Source: Xylographa opegraphella (Eukaryota). From it: a stretch of 64,000 nucleotides of DNA. Below are positions 15,794 to 31,300 of this stretch, piece after piece; position 1 is the first letter of the stretch, and each line of letters opens with the position of its first letter. The notes beneath the pieces were generated by a model. It was not told the DNA's origin and did no database searches. It saw only the letters and a program-made list of their open reading frames with translations. Location of the stretch: assembly GCA_022813865.1 (NCBI GenBank), contig JALDZX010000007.1, positions 1-64,000 on the forward strand, given 5' to 3'. Position numbers and translations under genes: made by a program.

Positions 15794-18700
15794 ATGGCCG
15801 TTGCAACCCAGCGGCCTCGGCAGCAACTCCTTAGGGCTGCTACAGACTTCGGTCCCCGCAAGGCTTCACCTTCGAGAGCGTCGAATGATGAAGACTGGGA
15901 ACTACGTCACGGCTGGGAGGAGCAGTACAACTCAGAAGAATACCTTACCATACTGAACTCGGTATTCACCTTTGCACTTGCTACTCCAAGTTTGATTACT
16001 AATCGCCCAACCAGGAATTCTACATGTACTACACTGACAAACGACATGAGTCGGGTGGTAAACCGAAGCTAGAAGACCTCACAAAGCAGTTTGAAGAATG
16101 GCGGAACAGGGATCGTGTCAAAACGGTCTTTGCTGGCTTGATGTTATGTCTTAATCTCGGGGTCGATCCGCCTGATGTTGTCAAAACCAACCCAACGGCA
16201 ACACTCGAGTGCTGGATTGACCCAGCTGCTCCGTCGTCCGCGAGTACTAAAGTGATGGAATCGATCGGTAAAGCTCTCATGACTCAGTACGAAACGTTAA
16301 GCATACGTACGCGATATAAACAATTCCTTGACCCTTCTCATGATGAGACAAAGCGTTGTTGCATTACCTTGCGACGCAACTCAAGAGACGAGCGAGTACT
16401 CTTTCACTACAACGGGCACGGTGTGCCTTTGCCAACGTCTTCTGGGGAGATATGGTATTTCAACAGAAATTATACACAATATATCCCTGTTTCACTATAT
16501 GACCTGCAGCAATGGCTGGCCGGGCCGACTATCTACGTCCTTGATGTCTCTCATGCTGGAAACGTGATTGCTAACTTCGGGAAATTCATCGAGAAGCATG
16601 AGCAGGAAAACAAGGAGATCTTAGTGAAAGAACCAGATGCCGCAGTCCAGTCATATAGCGATAATATCTTGCTGGCAGCTTGCGGAAAGGCAGAAACACT
16701 GCCAACGAATCCAGATCTTCCTGCGGATCTTTTCACGTCATGTCTTACAACCCCCGTTGCGATCTCGTTGAGATGTTTCGTCCTGAATAGTCAAGTTCCG
16801 ATGGATGTGACCCTCAAGGATTTAGAGAAAGTGCCCGGGCGTTCGCAAGAAAGGAGAACACCTTTAGGAGAACTGAATTGGATTTTCACTGCCATAACAG
16901 ATACGATTGCATGGGGCTCCTTGTCCCGCAAAGACTTCCGCAAACTGTTCCGACAAGATCTTATGGTCGCTGCACTTTTCCGCAACTATCTGCTTGCGGA
17001 GCGATTGATGAAAGCCAACAACTGCCATCCAGAGACCCGGCCTGAGCTACCGTCCACGCACAATCATCCGTTATGGCAATCATGGGATCTTGCTGTAGAG
17101 ATGGTGCTTGCGCAGCTTCCGGCAATGATAGCAAGCGAAGCAGGTGGTCTGCACTACGAGTACCAGCATTCAAGCTTCTTTGCAGAACAACTGACAGCTT
17201 TCGAGGTCTATCTGTCTCAAGGAGCCCCCGAACGTAAAGCACCTGACCAACTGCCAATAGTTCTGCAGGTCCTGCTTAGCCAGGTCCATAGACTCCGTGC
17301 ATTGATTTTACTCAGTAGATTCCTTGATCTCGGACCGTGGGCGGTTCATTTGGCACTGAGTATTGGGATTTTCCCTTACGTCTTGAAACTTCTACAGTCG
17401 GCAGCCCACGAACTCAAGCCTGTCATGATTTTCATTTGGGCTCGTATATTGGCCTTCGACCAATCCACACAATCAGAACTCCTGAAGGACAATGGCTACA
17501 AATACTTCCTTACTGCCCTGAAACCCGACGCTGGTTTACCTGTCGGCAATCAAAGTGAGCACCGAGCAATGTCAGCGTTCATCATCGCGATGTTCTGCAA
17601 AGATTTCCACCAGGGTCAGGTTGTTTCGCTATCCCCCGAGCTTTTCCAGGCTTGTCTTGATCACATGTATGATCCAGAGAATCCTCTATTGCGTCAATGG
17701 TCTTGTCTTTGTATTAGCATGCTTTGGAAGGACTTCCCTGAGGCAAAATGGGCTGGAATACGCGCAAATGTACACCAACGCCTCTGTCAAATGGTTCTGG
17801 ATCCTGTACCAGAGGTCCGAGCTGCTGCACTTCACGCTCTGAAAAACTTCCTTGGAATTCCTGATTTGACTGAACAAGTGGCACAAACCGAACAAGCTAT
17901 CGCAGCGACTGTTATGATCATGACATCAGATGGTAATAGTATGGTACGTGGCGAGCTGGTGGTGTTCTTTTCTTATTTTGTCAAGAGATACGAGAACAAA
18001 TTTATCGTTGCCGCATACGAGGAGCTTGTCGATGAGAAATATCGCCTGCAATGTCTTGCACTTCAAAGTGACGACAAAAAATCTGTCGCCTCTCAGTCCC
18101 ATGCAAATCTGTTGGAGAGTGCGGAGTATAGATCCAATGTTTCTGAAAGTGGTGCGCAGAAAACGAGAGAGCACATCTCGAGGCATAGCATTCATGCCTC
18201 TATATGGAAACACATACTTATTATGTCAATCGATCCCCATCCCGAGGTTGCTCACAAAGCCATTCTCGTCACAGATTACATCCATGGGAAACTTCTCACT
18301 TCGGCACTCGGAACTCATGCACAGACACTCATGGACGATCTAATCATTTTGGGCAGACGCCCAGCCCTCTCGCGACAGCCATCTTTGACTCCTCTTCCCA
18401 GGCTTGGAGAGGTTCCAATTGTACCAAGTACTCCGTACGACAAGAAGAATGATGGCTACCTGGCCGCTGGTCTAAAGCGTACTGCTACCTCGTTTGTGGC
18501 CCTGAAAAATATTGCCTTCGGCAGCTCTGCTACAGGCAATAGTACGCCCCCGACGAGCTCTTCTTCGTCGACATTACATCCGCATCAATCACAAATTCAA
18601 CCTAGTGCTGTCCGAGTACGTGTTCCAGACGAATGGAGTCGGCCCCCAGATGCTCATGACCATACTTTGAACTCTGTCCCGTATGAGCCTGCTGCACGTC

Positions 18701-20151
18701 CTATGCCAAGGGATTACCGGCCGGACACAGAAAGCGACAGTACCACTCTTCCCTTGAAAAGCGGGTTTTATGATTGGTCTATCGAGGTATTAGCTGCCAT
18801 ACAACCGACGACGTCTGCGATAGTCTCCTAATGTGATGCAGTATTTCCGCGAACCGCAGATGAAGACTGATGAGCCTGATGAGCCAGGAAGTGACGACTA
18901 CAACTCCAGGTTATGGCGACGAATGCGAAATGAGAAAACTCTCAATAGAACTCAACCACTCAAAGCGCTTGCGGGAACCAGTCGTTGGGATGTTCCTTCA
19001 GGATCCATAATCAACAAAAGTCAACCGATCAAAATGTGCTTCCATCAATTTGAAGATCATCTCGCTGTTGCGGATGACCGGGACAGCATCAGGTAAACTC
19101 AATCCATTGTATTTGATACTCACATTTAATCTCTACTAGCGTCTGGGATTGGCAGCAAAGAACACTTCTCAATCGCTTTTCTAACGGTAATCCAATCGGC
19201 TCAAAGATCACGGAAACACGATTTGTGAACGAGGATGATCAAGCATTACTCATTACTGGCGCAAGTGACGGAGTGGTCAAGATTTTCAGAGACTATGATA
19301 TGAAGGAAAAGATAGAGCTCGTCGCGGCTTATCGTGGGCTTACTGATCTAGTTCCAAGTAACAAGAATGTCGGTATGGTCTTCGAATGGCAACAGGGCCA
19401 AGGTAAACTGCTCGTTGCAGGCGATGTGAAAGTAATCAGGATATGGAATGCGGCTACCGAGATTTGTACCAATGTATGTCGTGCTTCACAATACTGCCAG
19501 CCGCAATCATTTGACACTTTTCAGGAAATCCCTGCGCGCTCAGGCTCTTGTATTACGTCTTTGACATCCGATCAGGTTGCGGGCAATGTGTTTGTCGCCG
19601 GCTATGGCGATGGAGCTCTCCGGGTATTCGATCAACGTGAAAAGCCGGCGACCGCAATGAAGCAAGCATGGCGCAGTCATAAGCAATGGATCACGAATGT
19701 GCATATGCAGCGGGGTGGTATGAGAGAGCTAATCAGTGGTAGTCGCAATGGGGAAATCAAGCTCTGGGATATCCGTATGAAGGAGGAGATTCGAACTATT
19801 ACCGCCACACGCAACACCCTGCGTACATTGAGTGTCCACGAACACGCTCCTGTATTTGTTACGTAAGTAACGACATGTCCACAGCTTCAAATCTGCGACT
19901 GATAACAATTTAGGGGTTCGGATAAGCACGACATCAAGTTCTTCAACGTCAATGGTGCTTTTCTTAACAGCGTCGTACCGAATACTAAAGTCTTCCCAAC
20001 GCTTAACCGGACCAATCCGATTGCAGCGACTGCCTTCCATCCACATCGTATGATGCTTGCGTGTTCCTCGCTTCACGACGATCACATCAGTCTCTTTACA
20101 TGTCATGACAGAAGAAAGCCCGATAGAAGGAGCGTTGTTCAGGAAGTCTGA
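15794..20151 (+). CDS. KOG1: Raptor/Kog1/Mip1, TORC1 scaffold subunit
   Basis: RNC domain (CLNLGVDPPDVVKT, RVLFHYNGHGVP, PADLFTSCLTTP, LFRQDL), HEAT repeats (LPIVLQVLLSQVHRLRAL) and C-terminal WD40s ending in TGA at 20149-20151. The start is uncertain because an upstream intron (about 15723-15788) implies a further 5' exon. Confidence 0.96.
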
Positions 20152-20552: not shown

Positions 20553-22326
20553 ATGGCTTCCTCGGAAGATCAGTCTTTACCAGAAAGGCCAAAAGGTGAG
20601 GAGACTGGCGCTCCTTCCAAGAACGCTTTGAAGAAAGCCGCGAAGGACAAAGAAAAAGCAGAAAAAGCAGCCAAACGGCAAGAGCAAGAACGATTGGAAA
20701 AGGAAAAGGTGGAAGCAAGTGACACTTCGAAACACCTTTACGGAAAGCTCGCGGAAGGTATACGCGACTCCTGCAAGCAAAAGGCCTCCGCCATTACAAC
20801 ACTTCGAGACTTGAATGAGGGGCTCGAGAACAAAGAGGTAACGGTACGGGCTCGCGTACACAACGCGCGAGTACAGTCCGCGAAGCTAGCATTCTTGGAT
20901 CTCAGGCAACGAACAGAGAATATACAGGCTGTGATTGCGGAGGGTGGGGAGAATGGCATATCGAGGCAAATGGTCAAGTGGTGCGGCGGACTAAACAAAG
21001 AATCAATTGTGCTTGTTACAGGCCTCGTGAAAAAGCCCAAGGAACCTATAAACTCGGCTACAATTTCGAACCTAGAACTTCATGTCGAGAGTTGCTTCGT
21101 TGTCTCTGAAGGGCCCGTACAATTGCCCATGCAGGTCAAGGATGCCATGCATCCCCCACCTGTGGGAGACGAAGCGGAGACGGAGGACCAGGTGGACAGT
21201 CAAGGTGTTCCGGTCGTCTCATTGAACGTCCGGCTTAACAACCGGGTTCTGAGCCTTCGCACACCTACCGACCAAGCGATTTTTCAGATTAATGGGGCGA
21301 TCTGTGAGCTTTTCCGCGAGCATCTGCTAAAGCAGCAGTTTCAAGAGCTCCAGACACCCAAGATCGCGGGCGCCGCGACCGAAGGTGGCAGCGGCGTCTT
21401 CGAGATCAATTACTTCAATAGCCCAGCGTTCTTGACACAGAGCCCTCAGTTCTACAAGCAAATGGCTATTGCCGGAGACATGGAGAGAGTCTTCGAAATT
21501 GGGCCCGTCTTCAGAGCCGAGAACAGCAACACCGCACGTCATCTTACAGAGGTATATCATATGGTCCTTCATGCTTCTGACAAAATGTTTGACTGATCAA
21601 CAGTTCACCGGCCTGGACTTCGAAATGGAGATTCACAACACGTGGGAAGAGATCATCGACTTCGCTGAAAGCCTCCTCATCTTTATCTTCAACGGCCTGC
21701 GAGAACGCTGTAAGTACTGGATGGAAGTCATCCAGCGCGAATACCCTGAGGCCGGCAACTTCAAGATCCCCGAAGGCCGCGCACCACGCATACGCTTCGC
21801 GGATGGCATCAAGATGCTCAACGAAGCCGGCATTGACGCATCGCCCGATGAAGACATTAGGTACTCAGCTCGGTCATCCATCGTGTAAATCAAACACTAA
21901 CCCCCATATTCCAGCACCACTAATGAAAAAACCCTCGGCCGCCTCATCCTCCAAAAGTACCACACGGACTTCTACTTCCTGACGCACTACCCCGCCGCCG
22001 CCCGCCCCTTCTACACCCACCTCGACCCCAGCAATGCCTCCCTCACACACTCCTACGACGCCTTCATGCGTGGCCAGGAGATCGTATCCGGCGCCCAGCG
22101 TATCCACGACCCAGCCATGCTGACGCAGCGGATGCGGAACATGGAGCCGCCGCTGGATCCGGACAGTGAAGGCTTTAAGCATTACGTCAATGCATTCCGC
22201 ATGGGGTGCGCGCCGCACGGAGGCGGGGGCTTTGGGCTCAATCGTATCACGATGCTGTGGTTGGGTTTGGGTAACATCAGGCAGGCGACTCTGTTCCCGA
22301 GAGATCCGGGGAGGAAGGCGCCTTGA
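20553..22326 (+). CDS. DPS1: Aspartyl-tRNA synthetase, cytosolic type (class IIb)
   Basis: Lys-rich N-terminal helix, OB-fold (RARVHNARVQSAKLAFLDLRQ), EGGSGVF, QSPQFYKQ, VFRAENSNTARHLTE|FTGLD, RGQEIVSGAQRIHD, PHGGGGFGLNR and LFPRDP. Two introns. Confidence 0.93.
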
Positions 22327-22586: not shown

Positions 22587-24181
22587 CTATTCGCCCCAAA
22601 CCGTTCTTGCGTTCAAGAGGTCCTTTTGCCCGTAGAATTCTCCCACGATAGTGACAATCATGTCTAGGGTAGCTAAAGCTTTAGCTTCGACGTCTGAACC
22701 CTTATCATTACTATTGTCTTCCAACGCATGGTCCGCTCCATGCGCTGTAGCGGATGGAGCAGGTGAGCGAACTTGTGCGAGAAGTAATTCTTTCGCAAGA
22801 GATAGTGAGTCCTTGACGTGCTCGTACTGGGCGAGAGCATCGAAGCTGCGTGAATTATGCGCTGCGTTGCTGATGACTTCCTTGCCAGGTGCAGTTTCCA
22901 TGGAAGTATCATGTTCCGGCCAGCGTTCTACCGCTTGGGCATTTTGCTCTTCACTTTCCATGACCGAGACATCTCCGTTTCTGTTGTCCTCGCTCGCTTT
23001 GGTGGGCTCGGCAACGTTTTCGGTTTCGTCCACCTCTCCTTCCTCAATCTCCTCCTCAATCTCGCCATTTCGGACTTCATGTTCTTCGAGTTTCTCTGCA
23101 CCAGTTACCACTTCTGGAGGTACCTCTTCGGACTCCTCATCGTCGCCTTCATCGTCATTGTCTCCAGCTGCATCAGCCTCAGTATTCCAACGAACCCCGA
23201 GACCTCCGTGTTTCTGCATCTTCAACTTTTTCCCCATCCTCAGCGCTGTCTTGCCTAGTGTTCTCAGAACCCCAACCTCCTCGCTTCCCATCTCGCCGAT
23301 TTCTCTGCATCTCCCAAGTAGACCCCAACACCACGCACCTATCTGATTGCCTTGTATCTCCGATAATAAGTCTTTCTTTGGTAGAAGTGTCTCCAGTCTG
23401 CTCAGACCTCGGACGACTCCATCTTGATGCATCGACGCTAGAAGTCGCATCGAAGGCGTAGTATGCAAGATTTGATACCTCCATTCTCGGTGTGTAGCAT
23501 TATGGAGGAAAGCCGCCTGGGTTGAGGCAGATAAGTTATCATTGTGTGGTTTATCAAGACTCGGGGCGGGTGGAGAGGAGTGCAGAATCAGGCGAATCTC
23601 ACGGAATCGGTTACTCAAAGACGCATAGTATGCTTCTTGCGGGTCTATGTCCTCGTCTTCTTCGTTGACATAGTCTCGTACCATAGAAGTGGAGCTCAGG
23701 TCAGGTAGAGCCGTATAGGCCCCATCTTCATAGTATCCGGTTTCGTAGTCCTCATAAAGGTCTCCATCTTCTGTGTCTGCCTTTTTTTCATTAAATGAAG
23801 GTGCTACTAGAAGATTTGGCACGCCTCTGGCTTCGGATCTGCAGTATAGCCAAGGTATCAGCGTTCTCTATATCTTCTGCACCAGGGCGAGAATTCTCAG
23901 CTAAGGCCCTTCGTGGATATGAATGGAAGCTTGACTTACCTAACCAGTCGTAGATACTCCATTCCGTCATTAGCGGGACCTTGGAAGAGCTCATCTTCGC
24001 CAGATGAGACGTCGAGGCCTGGAAAGGCACCGCGTTGGCCATAGGTGGGATCTACGCGTGATTGAATGTTGTAGGGTGACGTGTTGATGTCGCCATCTTC
24101 AAGATTGGAAGCAAATGCACGGGGTCGCTTATTATATGGACCTTCGGAGGTGCTTGAGGTTGTTTTGCGCTTCTTCGCCAT
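22587..24181 (-). CDS. Gemin2/SIP1 (Brr1/Yip1)-like snRNP assembly factor
   Basis: Spliced EYLRLVR|SEARGVPNLLVAP resembles the Gemin2 N-terminal EYLRRVQIEA..PDVVVA motif. The central WCWGLL and C-terminal LDMIVTIVGEFYGQKDL resemble the Gemin2 C-terminus. Long acidic insert. Confidence 0.65.
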
Positions 24182-26145
24182 AAAGCTTCAGCTGCCGATG
24201 ACGGATGTATGTATTGAGGGGCGGCGCGAATGTGGGCCTCAAGCTGATCGGACGGACTGGATGTAACCCATCAGGGGGAGATTGAAGATGTCCGGTGATT
24301 CTGGCGCTCCAAAATAGGCTTTCTGTGGAGGAACATTGCCCAGAGATTCTGCCGCTCCGAAGGACTGATATTCGGTTTCACATCTTCATCTCAGACAACA
24401 TGTAGTGCCTTATCCCCACTTAGAATTGAATCCACTACAAACCAGTCTACTTTATATCATCAGGATAATCAGGTAATATAGGATTTTGTGCTCGATTATC
24501 CATATATACATAAATACTACGCATATTTTACTTTCCTGTTGCCTTTATACCTTGACCACAGTCTGCCTGCGCTCCTAGAGTACACTATCATATGACCTCA
24601 ATCAGGACAGCCACTCAAAGAAGTTCAAATTCCACTCCGGGCTACAGGTCAAGTACTTTGATGTGATGGGCTATCCTCGGCTGCTTCATCATGATGGATG
24701 GACCAGAGTCGGATCAACTTTCATAATGGCTCGCGGCGGCCAAATCCCGTGCCTGTTCTTCATCTCATACTGTTCGGGGTATATTTGAAGCTGGATGCCG
24801 AATGCCATAAATTCCTCCCTGCATTTTTCGAGTTGACGTACAATCTAACAGAGCACTGGCTCTACTCCCCGAAACCATTCGAAGAAGCCATTGGGCCAAG
24901 GCTCAAATAGATACGGCCATTCCTTTGCACAACTTGACTCTGCGTTTTTCTGTGAGCTATATCGCAATTCCTTAGAACTTGCCAATTATAGACAGTCACC
25001 ATTTCAACCGACGTTTCCACGAAATGGTAGCAGGATGTTTCTCGGCGTAGCGTAGGATATCGATAATATCAACCTTAGACATCCAAGGCCTTCGAATCCG
25101 TGCACTTTGCTCATCAGGTCCATGTCTCTCGACTGCCGTACCATCCCCGTCCTCCATGCGAATACCATTAATGTTCCACGCTGATAAAGGCGGCGCTTAT
25201 GGCCGTTTGCGACTGAGATTCTAGTTTTCGTTGTACAGGGATCTAGACGAGATAAGCGGAACTCCAAAAACAACCACCACTCTTGAAGCTTCCCATAGTC
25301 CACGACCTTGATCATAAATATCAGACCGGTAATCTGTTAGCCTTGATGAGTCCTATTCTTGTGCAGCTTCTGTATCGTAGTGGCCTTCACTAAAGATAGT
25401 TCTATAGGAAATGCGGGCGAGTGGTAAGTGGGTAGGGTTAGTAAAGTCTTTCATTATAGTTTCCTCTGCCAGTTGGCCTCAGCTTGAGCTGCTCAAACCA
25501 TCAGCATATGCAGTAGCCGTCCCTTTCACGATTCAGTACTACACTGTATCCCGCTCGCCTGTATTCCCACAGATCTGCATACGTGCGGGGCTTCTGATTC
25601 GAGCCGTTCCTTGCAGTCTTTGGAGTAATGGACCTTGCGTTTCCAGTTCGTAGTAGGCTGTTATTGTATCTGTGCGGCACGTTGTCGATCAAAACGGCCC
25701 TCATGTATGCAGACTGCTATTCCACTGTTTGGTTTCATGATTCTGTTGCGTTGTGTGATGAGATCTGTCAAAAAGGGCCTCGATGCATCATGAAAAATGT
25801 ATCGATATGTTCAATGCTTCAATGAAGCCTTCTCATCAAGTCATAGGCTTCAACGTGTTTGGATCCGGCAATAAGTGGTTGGTGGCACATGACCGGACCA
25901 AGAGAAGTCGAGAGCAGCATGTATGTGACGACGCTATAGCGATGACTTTCGGTCCATATTATCGGTTCCTATGGTGGGTCGCGATGAGTCAAGATTCGGT
26001 GTATGTGCTATTGAGCGATCGTTGTAGCACTGTGTACCGTTAGCAAAAAGTACCTAGAAATAGGGCCGCTCAAACAACACACCAAGTTTTAGTGCAGGCC
26101 AGCGGTAAGCGAGTCCCAAGAATGAACAGAAATCCAAAAAAGGGC

Positions 26146-26330
26146 AAAAAACGGAAGAAGTCCGGATACGACCACGAGAAACTCTACTCCGGCTAGGAGT
26201 TGGTTTTTTGTTCCTACAAGCGACGATCTCCCCCAGCCGCACGCAGAATTAAATTCACTGGGTGAAGCGATTTACAGGGAAGTGGTTCGAACCCTGAGAC
26301 TGGCGCCTCTAACCAGCTGTGTACCCAAAC
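26146..26330 (-). ncRNA. Atypical tRNA-Leu(CAG)-like Pol III RNA gene (or tRNA pseudogene / tRNA-headed ncRNA)
   Basis: Minus strand shows an AT-rich leader ending ..TCAACTC, an A-box/D-loop-like CAGCTGGTTAGAGGCG, CCAGT-CT-CAG-G, a perfect B-box GGTTCGAACC (26293-26284) and two T6 terminators (26151-26146, 26141-26136). A partial cloverleaf can be drawn. Confidence 0.6.
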
Positions 26331-26706
26331 GAGTTGACCAACTTATCGTGCCATGAGAAATTAACATCGAATTAAAAGATATAAACTTATTATTTAACTT
26401 TTGTCTCCTTATTATCCTACCACCACACTTCGGCCTCAACTGTCTCTCATCGAGGCTACCTTGCTATATACTATGATAGCAGACCACAGGGACCTGCTGG
26501 TCAAACGATTTCCGACACTATATCGCTGCAGGCGCACAGAACTCTTCTTACACTACGTACAGCCATTATCATGCTCACATCCCCACTGCGCGGTCATTAC
26601 CCAAAGCCCAGATAGTTATCGATATGCGAATGCTCGTTACTCCACTTAACTATACATAGTACTCACGCTTCATCCAAGTGTCCGTTTAGACAACAAAATG
26701 CATTCT

Positions 26707-27971
26707 TCATCCAGCATCCTTAACATCTTCACTACAACTATCTAGTCGTAAAGTAAGGCACATCGGCCTCGTATCACTCAATCTCTCCCCCTCCCTCCCC
26801 TTCAGATCCTCATACCTCGCCACCCCATGCCCCTTTCTCTCCAACCCACTGACCAAAAACCGACATATATCCCCTCTATACTCCTCTCTCTGAACACACT
26901 CCACCTCCCGCACGCGCGCCTCCCTTATCAATCGCTCATAAGCCTCCCACCTCGCCCTCGCATCCTCCCGATCCACATAATGCACACTAAACCCCCCCAT
27001 CCCTTCCTCGCCCCTCGGCCCCATATTGAAATCCCCACTAAACACCACCACCCCCCGCTCCGCCCTCGTCCGCTCCACAAACGCCCCCGCCTGCCCCGCC
27101 TGCGCCATCCTCGCCACCTGCACCGCCCTCGACGCGCCCGCCTGCATGTGCGTCCCGAACACCTGCAGCCGGCCATCCCACCCATCCACCCGCACGGCGA
27201 TGAACGCGATCCCCTTCGCAGCGAAGCGGTCCACGCCCGCGACGTGCGCGTACCGCTCCCAGCCCGAGTCGACGATCTCGTGCCGGCTGAGGAAGAGCAA
27301 GCCGGAGTCGACGGCTCGGCCGGTGGGCCGCGGCGGGTGATAGCGGTGCGGGTGCGTGGTGTGCGAGAGCAGCGTTTTCTTGTACGCGAACGCTTCGTTG
27401 AGGACGACGATGTCGTAGGCGTTTAGGAGCGGGGAGATGGCGAGGGCGCGGGCGTGGGAGCGCCAGTCTGGGGAGGTTAGCGGTTGGAAGATTGAGTAGG
27501 ATGTGAGTTGGGGGGAGGTGGGAGGTGTGGGGGGTTATGTTACGCCTATAAGGTGTAATCCGGGCGTTGGCGGATTGGGATAATATAACTTGGGACTTAA
27601 ATCATTTACGCTTCATGGAGATATCAGACTTCGAGAATATATATATACCTGTAAGAAGGGAGGGCAGTAGCCAGGCATTCCAGAGCTGGGAGCGTTAGTA
27701 TGGAGAGAACGACAGGCAGGGGGCGACGGACGAGGATCTTGATCTCGAGCGGTGGAGCTTTGGGTATACTGGAGTTTTGCGGACAGTCGTCGGCTGGGAA
27801 AGAGGAGAACGATTGGGACGCTGAAGACATAGGAGCTGGCGCAGGGGATGATGCGCTGGTCGTGGCAGCGGGTTCATTTACTCGCCAGCCATTGTTGACG
27901 AAGGAAATCTTTGCGAATGACGGGGGGGTCTGATTCGAGAAAGGCGAATTCTCTTTCTCGTCGAGGAGCAT
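26707..27971 (-). CDS. Endonuclease/exonuclease/phosphatase-fold protein, sphingomyelinase-like (multi-exon)
   Basis: YDIVVLNEAF, DSGLLFLSRHEI, DRFAAKG, FGTHMQA, SGDFN and LSD motifs. The 5' exon structure is approximate. Confidence 0.8.
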
Positions 27972-28380: not shown

Positions 28381-31300
28381 CTATGCAACGCTTGCAACGA
28401 TCAAAGCAGCAACACCTTGTTCTTCAGTCCTGGCTGAAATTTTCAAAGTAACACCCGACTTGGCAGAAAACGCCATCTTGACCATAGCAGCGACCTTCCC
28501 TCCTGATATTGTTTTACCGTACAACTTGAGTGTATGTGTGCTAGTAGATAGAACCACGTCCGTACCATCAAGAGGTTGTAACGAAAGAGCTTTTATTAAT
28601 TGCTCAGTTGCGTCTGACCAAGGTTAGCAAAGAGAATACCAGTAGATGACCTTTGAGTCAGAGTCCATGTCTTACCAGCGAGGCTTTTCGTGTTAGCAAG
28701 TTGCAAGGTTTCCGATGCCTCATCTCCGTTGGCTCCAGTCTGCTCCCATACATGATCGAAGCTACCGGCGAAAGCCGGCGAAACATAGTCGCTCCCATTG
28801 AGTTCCAGATTTTCTACTTCGTACTCGTCATCGTAACCACTTTGATCCGGCTCACCTGTGGTCGGATCTATCTCCTTACTTGTGAATTTGAGAACGTTTG
28901 TGAACGAAGTGATGGCGAAAGGACTGTCTCCGATTTTCTTGAAGCTGACATATATCGTACCCGGTTCATCGGTATTCAACCGTGAAACAGGGATAATGAA
29001 TTCTTCGTCTAAGGACTCATCTTCTTCTGATGGTGTTGCAGCAACGGAGACGTCTTCCAAGACTGTCTCTGGTATGGTATTCTTGACTTCATATTGCAAG
29101 ACAACATGATCTTTGAAAATGTGCTTGACGACACTGACCGCGTATTCCGTTTCAGACTCCGTAAGCTCGACCACCGGAGATGATTTGAGAAGGTTTCCGT
29201 ATGCCTTTAGTTCGGGAATCGCCGATATTTGCTCGTTGTACTTCCGGGTTTGCGCTGATGCCAACACTACACTCTCGGCAGTACCGTTCGCTTGGGTTTT
29301 CTTAGGTCCAGTACTGGGTGCTTTCAGCGTTGGTGTCGCGGTCGTAAGTTTCTTCGTCCGCTCTTCCGCTAGGGCCTGCTCGTGTGTAACAACAGGAACA
29401 TTGCTGATGTCAAAAGCTGTTGAGAAGGTAGACTTGTCATCTGCAGTGACGTACATTACAAGCTGGTGTTCGAAAGTGGCCAACGAAAACATCGAATCTA
29501 CGACCGAGTTAGCAGGGACTACCAGATTTCGCTTCCCAGCATGTTACCATTCTTTATAAAGCGATTTGCCATCTCGTCATCTTCACTCATAAGCCGTAAG
29601 TTGAGCGCGGCTCGATCCCGGACTTCGTCATCAGTATCATCAAGACATCTCGTTAATAAAACTGTAACTGAACGTTTGACTTCGGGGTCTTTCTGCCCAA
29701 CACCAAACTTGGCAAGTGCTGTCACGGCTGCGGCCCTAACAAGAGCGTTTTCTAAGACGACCCTGTTGTAAATGTACCGAATATACTTGGTAGGTTGAGA
29801 TGTCTTGGGTCCTTCCACACCAAGCAGATGTAATATGCGTACGGCTAACTTCGTGAACTCGCAGTCTTCGATGAATTCACATAGATGCGCAAGGGCTATG
29901 AAATTAGCTCCGATCGCCTAAAGAAATGGAGTTCAAGGCTTACCATCTTCCTTACTACCGGGTACAAACTTTATCAAGTCGAACATGCTCTCTACCACGC
30001 TTCTCTTGAATTCATAGCCGCCCTCGTCCCTCAGAATACCGCTTAAGAATACAAGCATACCGGCCTGTTTACTGGGAAACTTGAGGCACAGCGTTCGGAT
30101 AGCTTCCACGATGGTGATCTTAAATTCATCGGTGATATCCGCCATAAAGCCTGAAATTTGCTTCATGAGCCGGTCCACACTGCCTTCGTTGCCAGTTTTT
30201 AAGAGTGTGGTGATTGCAAATGTGGCTATGGAACGATTAGAATTAGAGATAAGCGATTCTATATCTGGATTGCATGGCTGAACAGCTTGTGGCTTGAATG
30301 ATGCAACGCTATGCAGGATTCGGACAGCTGCAAACTTCGTAACAGCTCGTGGTGAGGTAAGAAACAACTGAAGTGTGTGAATTGCTTGGATCATTTCTGC
30401 TTCGGTGATGTCGTGCATGTCACAGATCGCTCTTGCGGCCTCGAAATTGACCATCTCATTTTTATGTCGAAGCCACCCATCCAAAAGTTGTAGCATTGGC
30501 TTTCGAAGGCTTGGATCGTCTTGCGCTAACTTTGCTGCCAGTCGTACCAACATAACGACGCCAGCAGGACTCTTTACTGCTCCAGGCGCACCAAGTTGCT
30601 GCACCATCTTCACAAGGGCCATTCGATCATGCGATCTCATTTGATACAAAAGCCCAATGGCATGATATTGAGTCATATAATTTGTATTCGCGGCTGCAAG
30701 GGAGTGTTGGCCCCCAGAGGTTGAGAAGCCCAGCGAGAATCCACCAGATGCTTTCGATGATGATGCGGCTTCCTGCGTTTCACTCTGCCACCGCTTGACC
30801 ACATCTCGAGCTATAGGAAGGAGGTGATACGAGGAGACAAGAGCTGCTGATGAGACCGATGGAGTTTTGTCTACAATTGCTGTCTTAATTAACCTCTCGA
30901 TAGCCTGGACAGTCGTTGCCTTTGACGTGTGAGTAAATCGCAAGAAATTCATGAGTGTTCACATACATCAATGATTCTGCAAAGTGTCCGTATTGCATTC
31001 GCCCGGTAAAGGACATCGCTTCCTACCGCAGTGTCTTTCATGATGCTACTGGTCACCATGATAACATCCTCCGCAGTATTTGAGAGCTCTTTGATAACCA
31101 GGTAGACCATTTGCCGTAGTGACGCATCTTTGTTTTGAAAGAGCTTCGATATACCAAAAAACAACGAGGTAGCCTCACCCGTAGGGAATTTCTCCCCTGT
31201 GAAGAGGAGCAATACGATTTTGGTGAGTAGCCTCCGACATCTTAAGGGCGATATAGGAGAAGAATTGAACAACCGAGCTACAGGAGTATTAGCTTTTTTC

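Follow-up and report, generated by a model that had tools for sequence, protein, structure and literature searches.

A tRNA-Leu(CAG)-like element with an internal deletion in Xylographa opegraphella: a probable relic and not an intron-containing tRNA

On the minus strand of Xylographa opegraphella contig JALDZX010000007.1, between positions 26336 and 26136, lies a tRNA-like element whose B-box stands directly behind the CAG of what resembles the 5' half of a tRNA-Leu, at the place where a tRNA intron would begin. How does a B-box come to lie there? An earlier note on this DNA had proposed an intron-containing tRNA-Leu(CAG)-like RNA, in which a 54-nt intron holds the B-box and a run of A residues serves as T-loop. 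We analyzed this proposal and its alternatives in the window, i.e. the first 64,000 nucleotides (64 kb) of the contig, which represent gene-dense, intron-bearing DNA of a lichen-forming fungus. The element is not a tRNA. Taking retroposition and decay in place together, we consider it probable that it is a non-functional relic derived from tRNA-Leu(CAG), and an internal deletion accounts for the position of the B-box.

The tRNA-Leu(CAG)-like head and the intron model

A metagenome scan with GGTNNNRGGCGCCAGTCTCAGG returned nine loci, and among them one, L007, proved to be a true tRNA-Leu(CAG) of a eukaryote. The other eight of the nine are chance matches in non-tRNA sequence, mostly GC-rich DNA, with L003 being identical to L009. 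At positions 94-175 L007 encodes a canonical tRNA-Leu(CAG), followed by a T9 terminator four nt past the 3' end. The junction of anticodon and B-box seen in the element was repeated in none of the nine metagenome loci (0/9), and scanning the metagenomes for the exact junction 20-mer gave 0 loci.

Alignment shows that the element and L007 share a 7+2+3+11+3+1+5 layout as far as the anticodon loop, consisting of a 7-nt acceptor strand, 2 nt, a 3-nt D-stem strand, an 11-nt D-loop, a second 3-nt D-stem strand, 1 nt, the 5-nt anticodon stem strand and a loop with CAG. The 5' part is thereby shown to be tRNA-Leu(CAG)-like, as the earlier note had stated. Between CTCA and GGGTTCGAA a gap of 21 columns opens against L007, after which the alignment picks up again, with CC-AC-T, TCCCTGT-A of the element opposite CCCAC-T, CTTGTC-A of L007. 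The GGGTTCGAA stretch and the bases that follow it lie outside the search pattern, yet they align to L007. The earlier note had also mentioned an alternative, a SINE-like (short interspersed nuclear element) unit with a tRNA-Leu head deleted between anticodon and T-arm; the deletion that it supposed is shown by the 21-nt gap. The simplest reading of the sequence is that the head is a tRNA-Leu(CAG) copy that lost the 3' strand of the anticodon stem, the long variable arm and the first bases of the T-stem. The features on which this reading draws are as follows:

26270..26330, minus strand: tRNA-Leu(CAG)-derived head, from the alignment to L007 and pairing counts
26304..26323, minus strand: A-box/D-arm region, degenerate (TACACAGCTGGTTAGAGGCG compared with TGGCCGAGCGGTCTAAGGCG in L007)
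26292..26295, minus strand: deletion junction, where 21 nt of canonical tRNA-Leu are gone; the exact cut is ambiguous within a G run
26284..26293, minus strand: B-box/T-loop GGTTCGAACC, a 10-nt palindrome aligned to the T-arm of L007

From 5' to 3' the head reads GTTTGGG, TA, a broken D-stem (CAC against GGC) around the D-loop AGCTGGTTAGA, G, CCAGT, CTCAGG, GGTTCGAACC-AC-T and TCCCTGT-A. The D-stem CAC/GGC pairs at 1/3 positions, and measured against the general A-box consensus this region is degenerate, with many differences from L007. The T-stem CAGGG/CACTT forms 3/5 pairs. TCCCTGT-A corresponds to a remnant of the acceptor 3' strand, pairing with GTTTGGG at 5/7 positions (3 G-U). Because the 21-nt deletion joins the anticodon loop to the T-arm, the B-box takes up an apparent intron position right behind G37. 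The general 11-nt B-box pattern GGTTCGAANCC is matched with one mismatch on the minus strand and none on the plus strand; as the B-box is a palindrome, what fixes the strand of the element is the tRNA-like 5' half and not the B-box. The 24-mer GGCGCCAGTCTCAGGGTTCGAACC that carries the B-box is unique in the window, with 0 occurrences expected.

We then considered the intron model, in which the same B-box is intronic. Reading the sequence directly, we found every string that the earlier note had listed, as well as both T6 runs:

26330-26324, minus strand: GTTTGGG, acceptor-like; AGCTGGTTAGAGGCG comes next
26303-26299, minus strand: CCAGT, 5' strand of the anticodon stem, with the loop CTCAGGG
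26293-26284, minus strand: GGTTCGAACC, the B-box, beginning one base past the CAG triplet
26237-26233, minus strand: GCTGG, proposed partner in the anticodon stem
26217-26213, minus strand: GTAGG, proposed 5' strand of the T-stem
26212-26204, minus strand: AACAAAAAA, proposed replacement of the T-loop
26203-26199, minus strand: CCAAC, proposed 3' strand of the T-stem
26198-26192, minus strand: TCCTAGC, proposed acceptor partner
26151-26146 and 26141-26136, minus strand: T6 runs

The pairings exist as described, and in the real sequence the proposed model has one solution, with an intron offset of 55, a variable region of 15, a T-stem of 4/5 pairs and a loop of 9. At its acceptor site it reaches 6/7 pairs, compared with the 5/7 at the site given by the deletion. 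To assess the proposed 3' half, the 5' half was kept fixed and the downstream 141 nt were dinucleotide-shuffled (n=3000); a completion was accepted if it offered a 5/5 anticodon partner, a variable region of 4-21 nt, a T-stem of at least 4/5 pairs, a loop of 7-9 nt and at least 6/7 acceptor pairs. A completion as good as the proposed one occurred in 183/3000 shuffles, and in 77/3000 when only a 7-nt loop was allowed. The proposed 3' half of the cloverleaf is thus within chance.

ARAGORN found 0 tRNA genes in the whole window and also 0 at its default threshold with introns allowed. Relaxing the threshold to 80%, 70% and 60% (-ps80, -ps70, -ps60) with introns allowed never led to a call of Leu(CAG) at 26330-26192; all calls obtained in this way were unrelated, namely Gly(ccc), which had a 135-nt intron and lay on the opposite strand, Ala(agc) and Ile(aat). 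Rfam gave 0 matches at gathering level in the 64 kb. At E<=10 no tRNA was returned for 25800-26700, both of the two matches being noise (uup with 14.4 bits, Acido-1 with 14.1 bits), nor for 26262-26335, where the two matches were again noise (PreQ1 with 9.3 bits, sR3 with 8.9 bits). As a positive control, the tRNA-Leu(CAG) of L007 scored 57.6 bits against RF00005 and was also called by ARAGORN. The Rfam search for which the earlier note had called hence matched no family, even at E<=10, and the element belongs to no described RNA family.

The central claim of a 54-nt intron with the B-box inside and the A-run as T-loop is accordingly accepted by neither ARAGORN nor Rfam, and its 3' half does not exceed chance in the shuffles. 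The D-stem is moreover broken, a T-loop is absent in this model, and a 21-nt deletion explains the position of the B-box more simply. We attach hardly any probability to an intron-containing tRNA-Leu(CAG)-like RNA at this locus.

Other RNA classes were considered as well. Known non-coding RNAs of RNA polymerase III (Pol III), i.e. RNase P/MRP RNA, signal recognition particle RNA, U6, snR52 and Y/vault RNA, were rejected as their Rfam covariance models gave no match. A C/D or H/ACA small nucleolar RNA (snoRNA) in the downstream part found no support in Rfam; by eye neither a C/D box pair nor a 3' ACA was seen there.

Flanking repeats, copy number and origin of the element

Downstream of the head the resemblance to a tRNA ends, and the following features were mapped:

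26331..26336, minus strand: upstream CAACTC, candidate target-site duplication (TSD), ending exactly where the head begins
26213..26269, minus strand: tRNA-unrelated body of about 57 nt, in which an irregular hairpin (CCTGTAA/TTGTAGG, CCCAG/CTGGG) is possible
26203..26212, minus strand: A-rich tract AACAAAAAAC, the 'T-loop' of the earlier note, read here as a putative retrocopy tail
26197..26202, minus strand: downstream CAACTC, directly past the A-rich tract

When the 26 nt upstream of the element are compared with the 116 nt that start at the A-run, CAACTC is the only word of at least 6 nt present in both. In 88/20000 shuffles a repeat of at least 6 nt arose at the boundaries, with 3 nt of slack on each side. 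The length between the repeats is 128 nt, and about 195 nt are reached if the T-runs are included. Head, body, A-rich tail and short flanking direct repeats together would fit the anatomy of a SINE-like retrocopy. As in a tRNA-derived SINE, the 5' head derives from a tRNA and has internal A and B boxes, the B-box being intact and the A-box region degenerate. The retrocopy would consist of the head, the unrelated body of about 57 nt and the A-rich tail AACAAAAAAC, and would have been inserted at a CAACTC target that was duplicated on both sides (26336-26331 and 26202-26197). A scan for sigma-70 promoters and intrinsic terminators returned as its only hairpin with T-run the plus-strand complement of this A-tract, which is not relevant to a eukaryote.

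The number of copies was determined in the window and in assembled sequencing runs. Searching the window with the element (blastn-short) gave nothing beyond 11-nt words, and the body had no similar stretch. Of the 98362 contigs of run X1 (30.6 Mb) only one (1/98362) matched 25300-27600 at 80% or more; it spans the whole region without differences. Of three runs listed for 26100-26360, none of them recorded as RNA, only X1 contains this stretch, with 21 of 21 sampled words present; X1 may be the source of this DNA. From runs X2 and X3, derived from other organisms in the same study, came only short pieces (23-43 nt, 1-8 other letters in each), which were taken as chance or unrelated matches; since pieces as short as these were placed, short second copies should have shown. 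The element is single-copy at a likeness of at least 80% and no current multi-copy family exists at this level. Among these pieces is one of 36 nt with 6 other letters, in X2 as well as in X3, at 26273-26308, which coincides with the anticodon-loop/B-box junction. The flanks of this piece in X2 are GC-rich and unlike the element, and it is probably an unrelated sequence common to both runs.

A relic could also have formed without any transposition. A functional tRNA-Leu(CAG) gene may have suffered a 21-nt deletion in place through microhomology within the G-run, followed by point changes and loss of its own terminator, with CAACTC and the A-run being coincidental. Head and deletion provide equal evidence for such a pseudogene and for a retrocopy; the element being single-copy and the failure to find a retroelement nearby agree with decay in place, and so does the remnant of the acceptor 3' strand, which lies where it is expected, right past the T-arm, with 5/7 pairs. 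Yet no T-run follows the remnant for about 120 nt, in contrast to the T9 four nt past the tRNA of L007, and the boundary repeat together with the A-rich tract is unlikely to arise by chance (88/20000). We consider decay in place unlikely. Retroposition, taken alone, is a possible origin to which we lean tentatively, while rating it somewhat below an even chance; it would have left an old copy that stands between two housekeeping genes.

Several points weigh against the reading as a retrocopied relic. The shuffle frequency of 88/20000 (0.4%) is optimistic by a few-fold because the 3' boundary, the A-run, was chosen after it had been seen; the repeat with its 6 nt is short and the A-rich tract comprises only 10 nt. 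The head was compared with the tRNA-Leu(CAG) of a eukaryotic metagenome contig, L007, instead of that of the host fungus. No dispersed SINE family was found at a likeness of 80% or more, with neither a further copy nor a master gene nor a partner LINE (long interspersed nuclear element) seen, and none of the 11 long open reading frames (ORFs) scanned in the window encodes a retroelement protein or reverse transcriptase. Being single-copy agrees equally well with a pseudogene formed in place and with a retrocopy. A perfect B-box and the only T6 doublet of the window could mean upkeep by selection. No function is indicated, and a neutral relic is here the default and not a demonstrated state.

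Polymerase III signals and genomic neighborhood

Whether or not it is a relic, the element carries signals that could still direct transcription by Pol III. Two of them lie outside the tRNA-like head:

26136..26151, minus strand: T6-GCCC-T6 doublet, candidate Pol III terminator about 180-195 nt downstream of the start of the head, in flanking DNA
26360..26405, minus strand: AT-rich upstream stretch (AAAGTTAAATAATAAGTTTATATCTTTTAATTCG...), with a GC content of 0.425 in 26300-26499

Runs of at least six T residues occur 13 times on the minus strand and 11 times on the plus strand of the 64 kb, the doublet being the only pair at most 40 nt apart. It lies 52-67 nt past the second CAACTC, that is, in the would-be target DNA; the T-run nearest to the tRNA remnant is thus some 120 nt away from it. 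The AT-rich stretch could be a landing site of TFIIIB or the poly(A) region of the neighboring EEP (endonuclease/exonuclease/phosphatase) gene. The earlier note had described the promoter as maintained and the tRNA elbow as not; this holds for the intact B-box, but not for the A-box, which is degenerate, with a D-stem pairing at a single one of its three positions. Owing to the 21-nt gap, less sequence separates the A and B boxes here than in L007. With its B-box intact, its A-box half preserved, AT-rich DNA upstream and a T6 doublet downstream, the element may still be transcribed by Pol III: TFIIIC would bind the B-box, and Pol III would start a short way upstream of 26330 and stop at the T6 doublet. 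The resulting RNA of about 190 nt would not be aminoacylatable.

Such an RNA might be the product of a functional gene. The crippled tRNA module would then serve as internal promoter, perhaps also as a handle for RNase P/Z, and the actual product would be an RNA of about 120 nt encoded downstream of it. In a variant of this explanation the single-copy module is a deliberately minimised tRNA-Leu, composed of 5' half and T-arm and lacking anticodon and variable arm, that acts solely as promoter and 5' processing handle and heads a lineage-specific RNA, for instance a milR-4-type hairpin precursor or a RUF70-like RNA. The intact B-box within its unique 24-mer, the AT-rich DNA upstream and the only T6 doublet of the window at a Pol III-like distance speak for a gene of this kind, and fungal RNAs led by a tRNA are on record (PMC2566860, PMC3547838). 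The tRNA that leads the known dicistronic genes is intact and functional; that of the element is broken. A structural signal was looked for by comparing predicted folds with those of shuffled sequences, and none of the five stretches tried folded better than its shuffles. For the whole 196 nt (26140-26335) z was -0.81, with 44/200 shuffles folding at least as well. The head (26268-26330) reached z = +0.56 (143/200 at least as well), the body hairpin (26211-26281) z = -0.25 (82/200), the 3' part (26152-26205) z = +0.01 (99/200), and body and 3' part combined (26152-26281) z = -0.38 (65/200). The non-translational role suggested in the earlier note is hence a guess, the folds giving no structure signal; a match to an Rfam family, as reported above, is missing as well. 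To our knowledge no tRNA has A and B boxes spaced as closely as here; transcription would be weakened by a spacing that falls short of the natural range. We regard a functional gene headed by the tRNA module as improbable, and its minimised-module variant as improbable to the same degree.

The B-box might instead be kept for binding of TFIIIC without, or with little, transcription, similar to extra-TFIIIC (ETC) sites, and insulate the EEP gene from the region downstream of it. It is the only fully kept tRNA feature and its position is between Pol II genes. A lone match of 10 nt is, however, indistinguishable from a recent origin, and both neighboring genes are on one strand, while yeast ETC sites are mostly found between divergent genes. 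An ETC-like site therefore appears very improbable, and we return to the relic as the preferred explanation.

The neighboring genes were assigned by protein domains and homology. A minus-strand ORF at 26707-27534 encodes the EEP protein (Pfam PF03372), which shows 100% identity to a protein recorded as coming from Xylographa opegraphella; its homologues show 75-85% identity in six other Xylographa species (X. soralifera, X. vitiligo, X. pallens, X. carneopallida, X. bjoerkii and X. trunciseda), 64% in Lambiella (L. insularis) and 57% in Trapelia (T. coarctata). Past the EEP stop codon, the tRNA-like element follows after about 375 nt on the shared strand. On the same strand as EEP, the gene of coatomer gamma follows at higher coordinates (28596-30952) and that of a SIP1/Gemin2 protein at lower coordinates (22590-23867). 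Between 24695 and 26646 nine ORFs of at least 70 aa, counted from stop to stop, were scanned, and none (0/9) had a Pfam match. The stretch of about 1.8 kb from the element to the start of the SIP1/Gemin2 gene (24300-26100) holds short ORFs only, and those scanned were without Pfam match. Three plus-strand ORFs in this stretch (25408-25653, 25598-25825 and 25762-26043) overlap and could belong to a gene that is split by introns, has escaped annotation and converges on the element; if so, the plus-strand A6 runs at 26136-26151 might mark a 3' end region and not a Pol III terminator.

Further away, an aminoacyl-tRNA synthetase of class II, which is of the D/K/N type and has an OB anticodon-binding domain, is encoded at 20553-21596, 5 kb from the element, and a protein with a Raptor N-terminal domain at 16024-18831; both are ordinary housekeeping neighbors. 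The body of the EEP gene (26800-27400) shows a GC content of up to 0.715 with a strong swing in GC skew and has long open frames on both strands, as expected in compositionally biased coding DNA. It also drew most of the short unrelated contig pieces from runs X2 and X3.

If the element is a relic its importance is small. It would provide an example from the Lecanoromycetes, in which mobile elements are poorly described, and a possible presence/absence marker among Xylographa species. It also illustrates how the loss of an internal segment can give the appearance of an 'intronic B-box'. A new fungal tRNA-headed Pol III non-coding RNA would be at hand only if the element is kept in relatives or if a discrete transcript exists.

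Comparison with known systems

Over positions 1-37 the element agrees with the canonical tRNA-Leu(CAG), represented by L007 and RF00005, in layout and largely in sequence; the T-loop GGGTTCGAA and the placement of CAG are shared as well. It differs in having neither a 3' anticodon stem strand nor a variable arm, in its broken D-stem and acceptor stem, and in the missing adjacent terminator.

A- and B-box also lie in a 5' segment outside any tRNA in RPR1 and snR52 of S. cerevisiae. Unlike in these genes, no RNase P RNA or C/D snoRNA follows downstream in the element according to Rfam, and inspection by eye revealed neither C/D nor CR motifs. The leaders of RPR1 and snR52 are described as not arrangeable into a tRNA-like structure (PMC2566860), whereas the head of the element is plainly tRNA-Leu-derived.

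Dicistronic Pol III genes led by a tRNA offer a second comparison. Such genes are tRNA-5S and tRNA-Trp-RUF70 in Y. lipolytica (PMC2566860) and the tRNA-Ala-milR-4 gene of Neurospora, in which milR-4 needs an RNase Z cut (PMC3547838). The dicistronic genes and the element have in common a tRNA-type internal promoter at the 5' end and an unrelated segment before the first T-run. The described genes release an intact tRNA by RNase Z and are multi-copy or have products that were shown experimentally; the element, in contrast, has a crippled tRNA module and a downstream part without structure signal.

The closest resemblance by description is to AfuSINE2 of Aspergillus fumigatus. These are tRNA-related elements of 140-493 bp with an A box more degenerate than the B box, TSDs of 4-14 bp and heads without a cloverleaf fold; three are single-copy by Southern blot and 5/8 are transcribed (PMC5063351). 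The parent tRNAs named there are those for Ala, Arg, Gly, Met, Thr and Ser (PMC5063351), and Leu is not among them. Compared by description only, both are found in an ascomycete. In either case the 5' head is related to a tRNA, has a B box better kept than its degenerate A box and does not form a cloverleaf, and the sequence that extends it is unrelated to a tRNA. Some members of AfuSINE2 are single-copy, as is the element itself. The direct repeats of 6 bp compare with 4-14 bp in AfuSINE2, and the size of 128 or about 195 nt with 140-493 bp. Transcription was shown for 5/8 AfuSINE2 elements and is a possibility for our element. The clean internal deletion that joins the anticodon loop to the T-arm sets it apart from AfuSINE2. 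In summary, the element is fairly ordinary, being one more example of a low-copy tRNA-derived SINE-like sequence or pseudogene.

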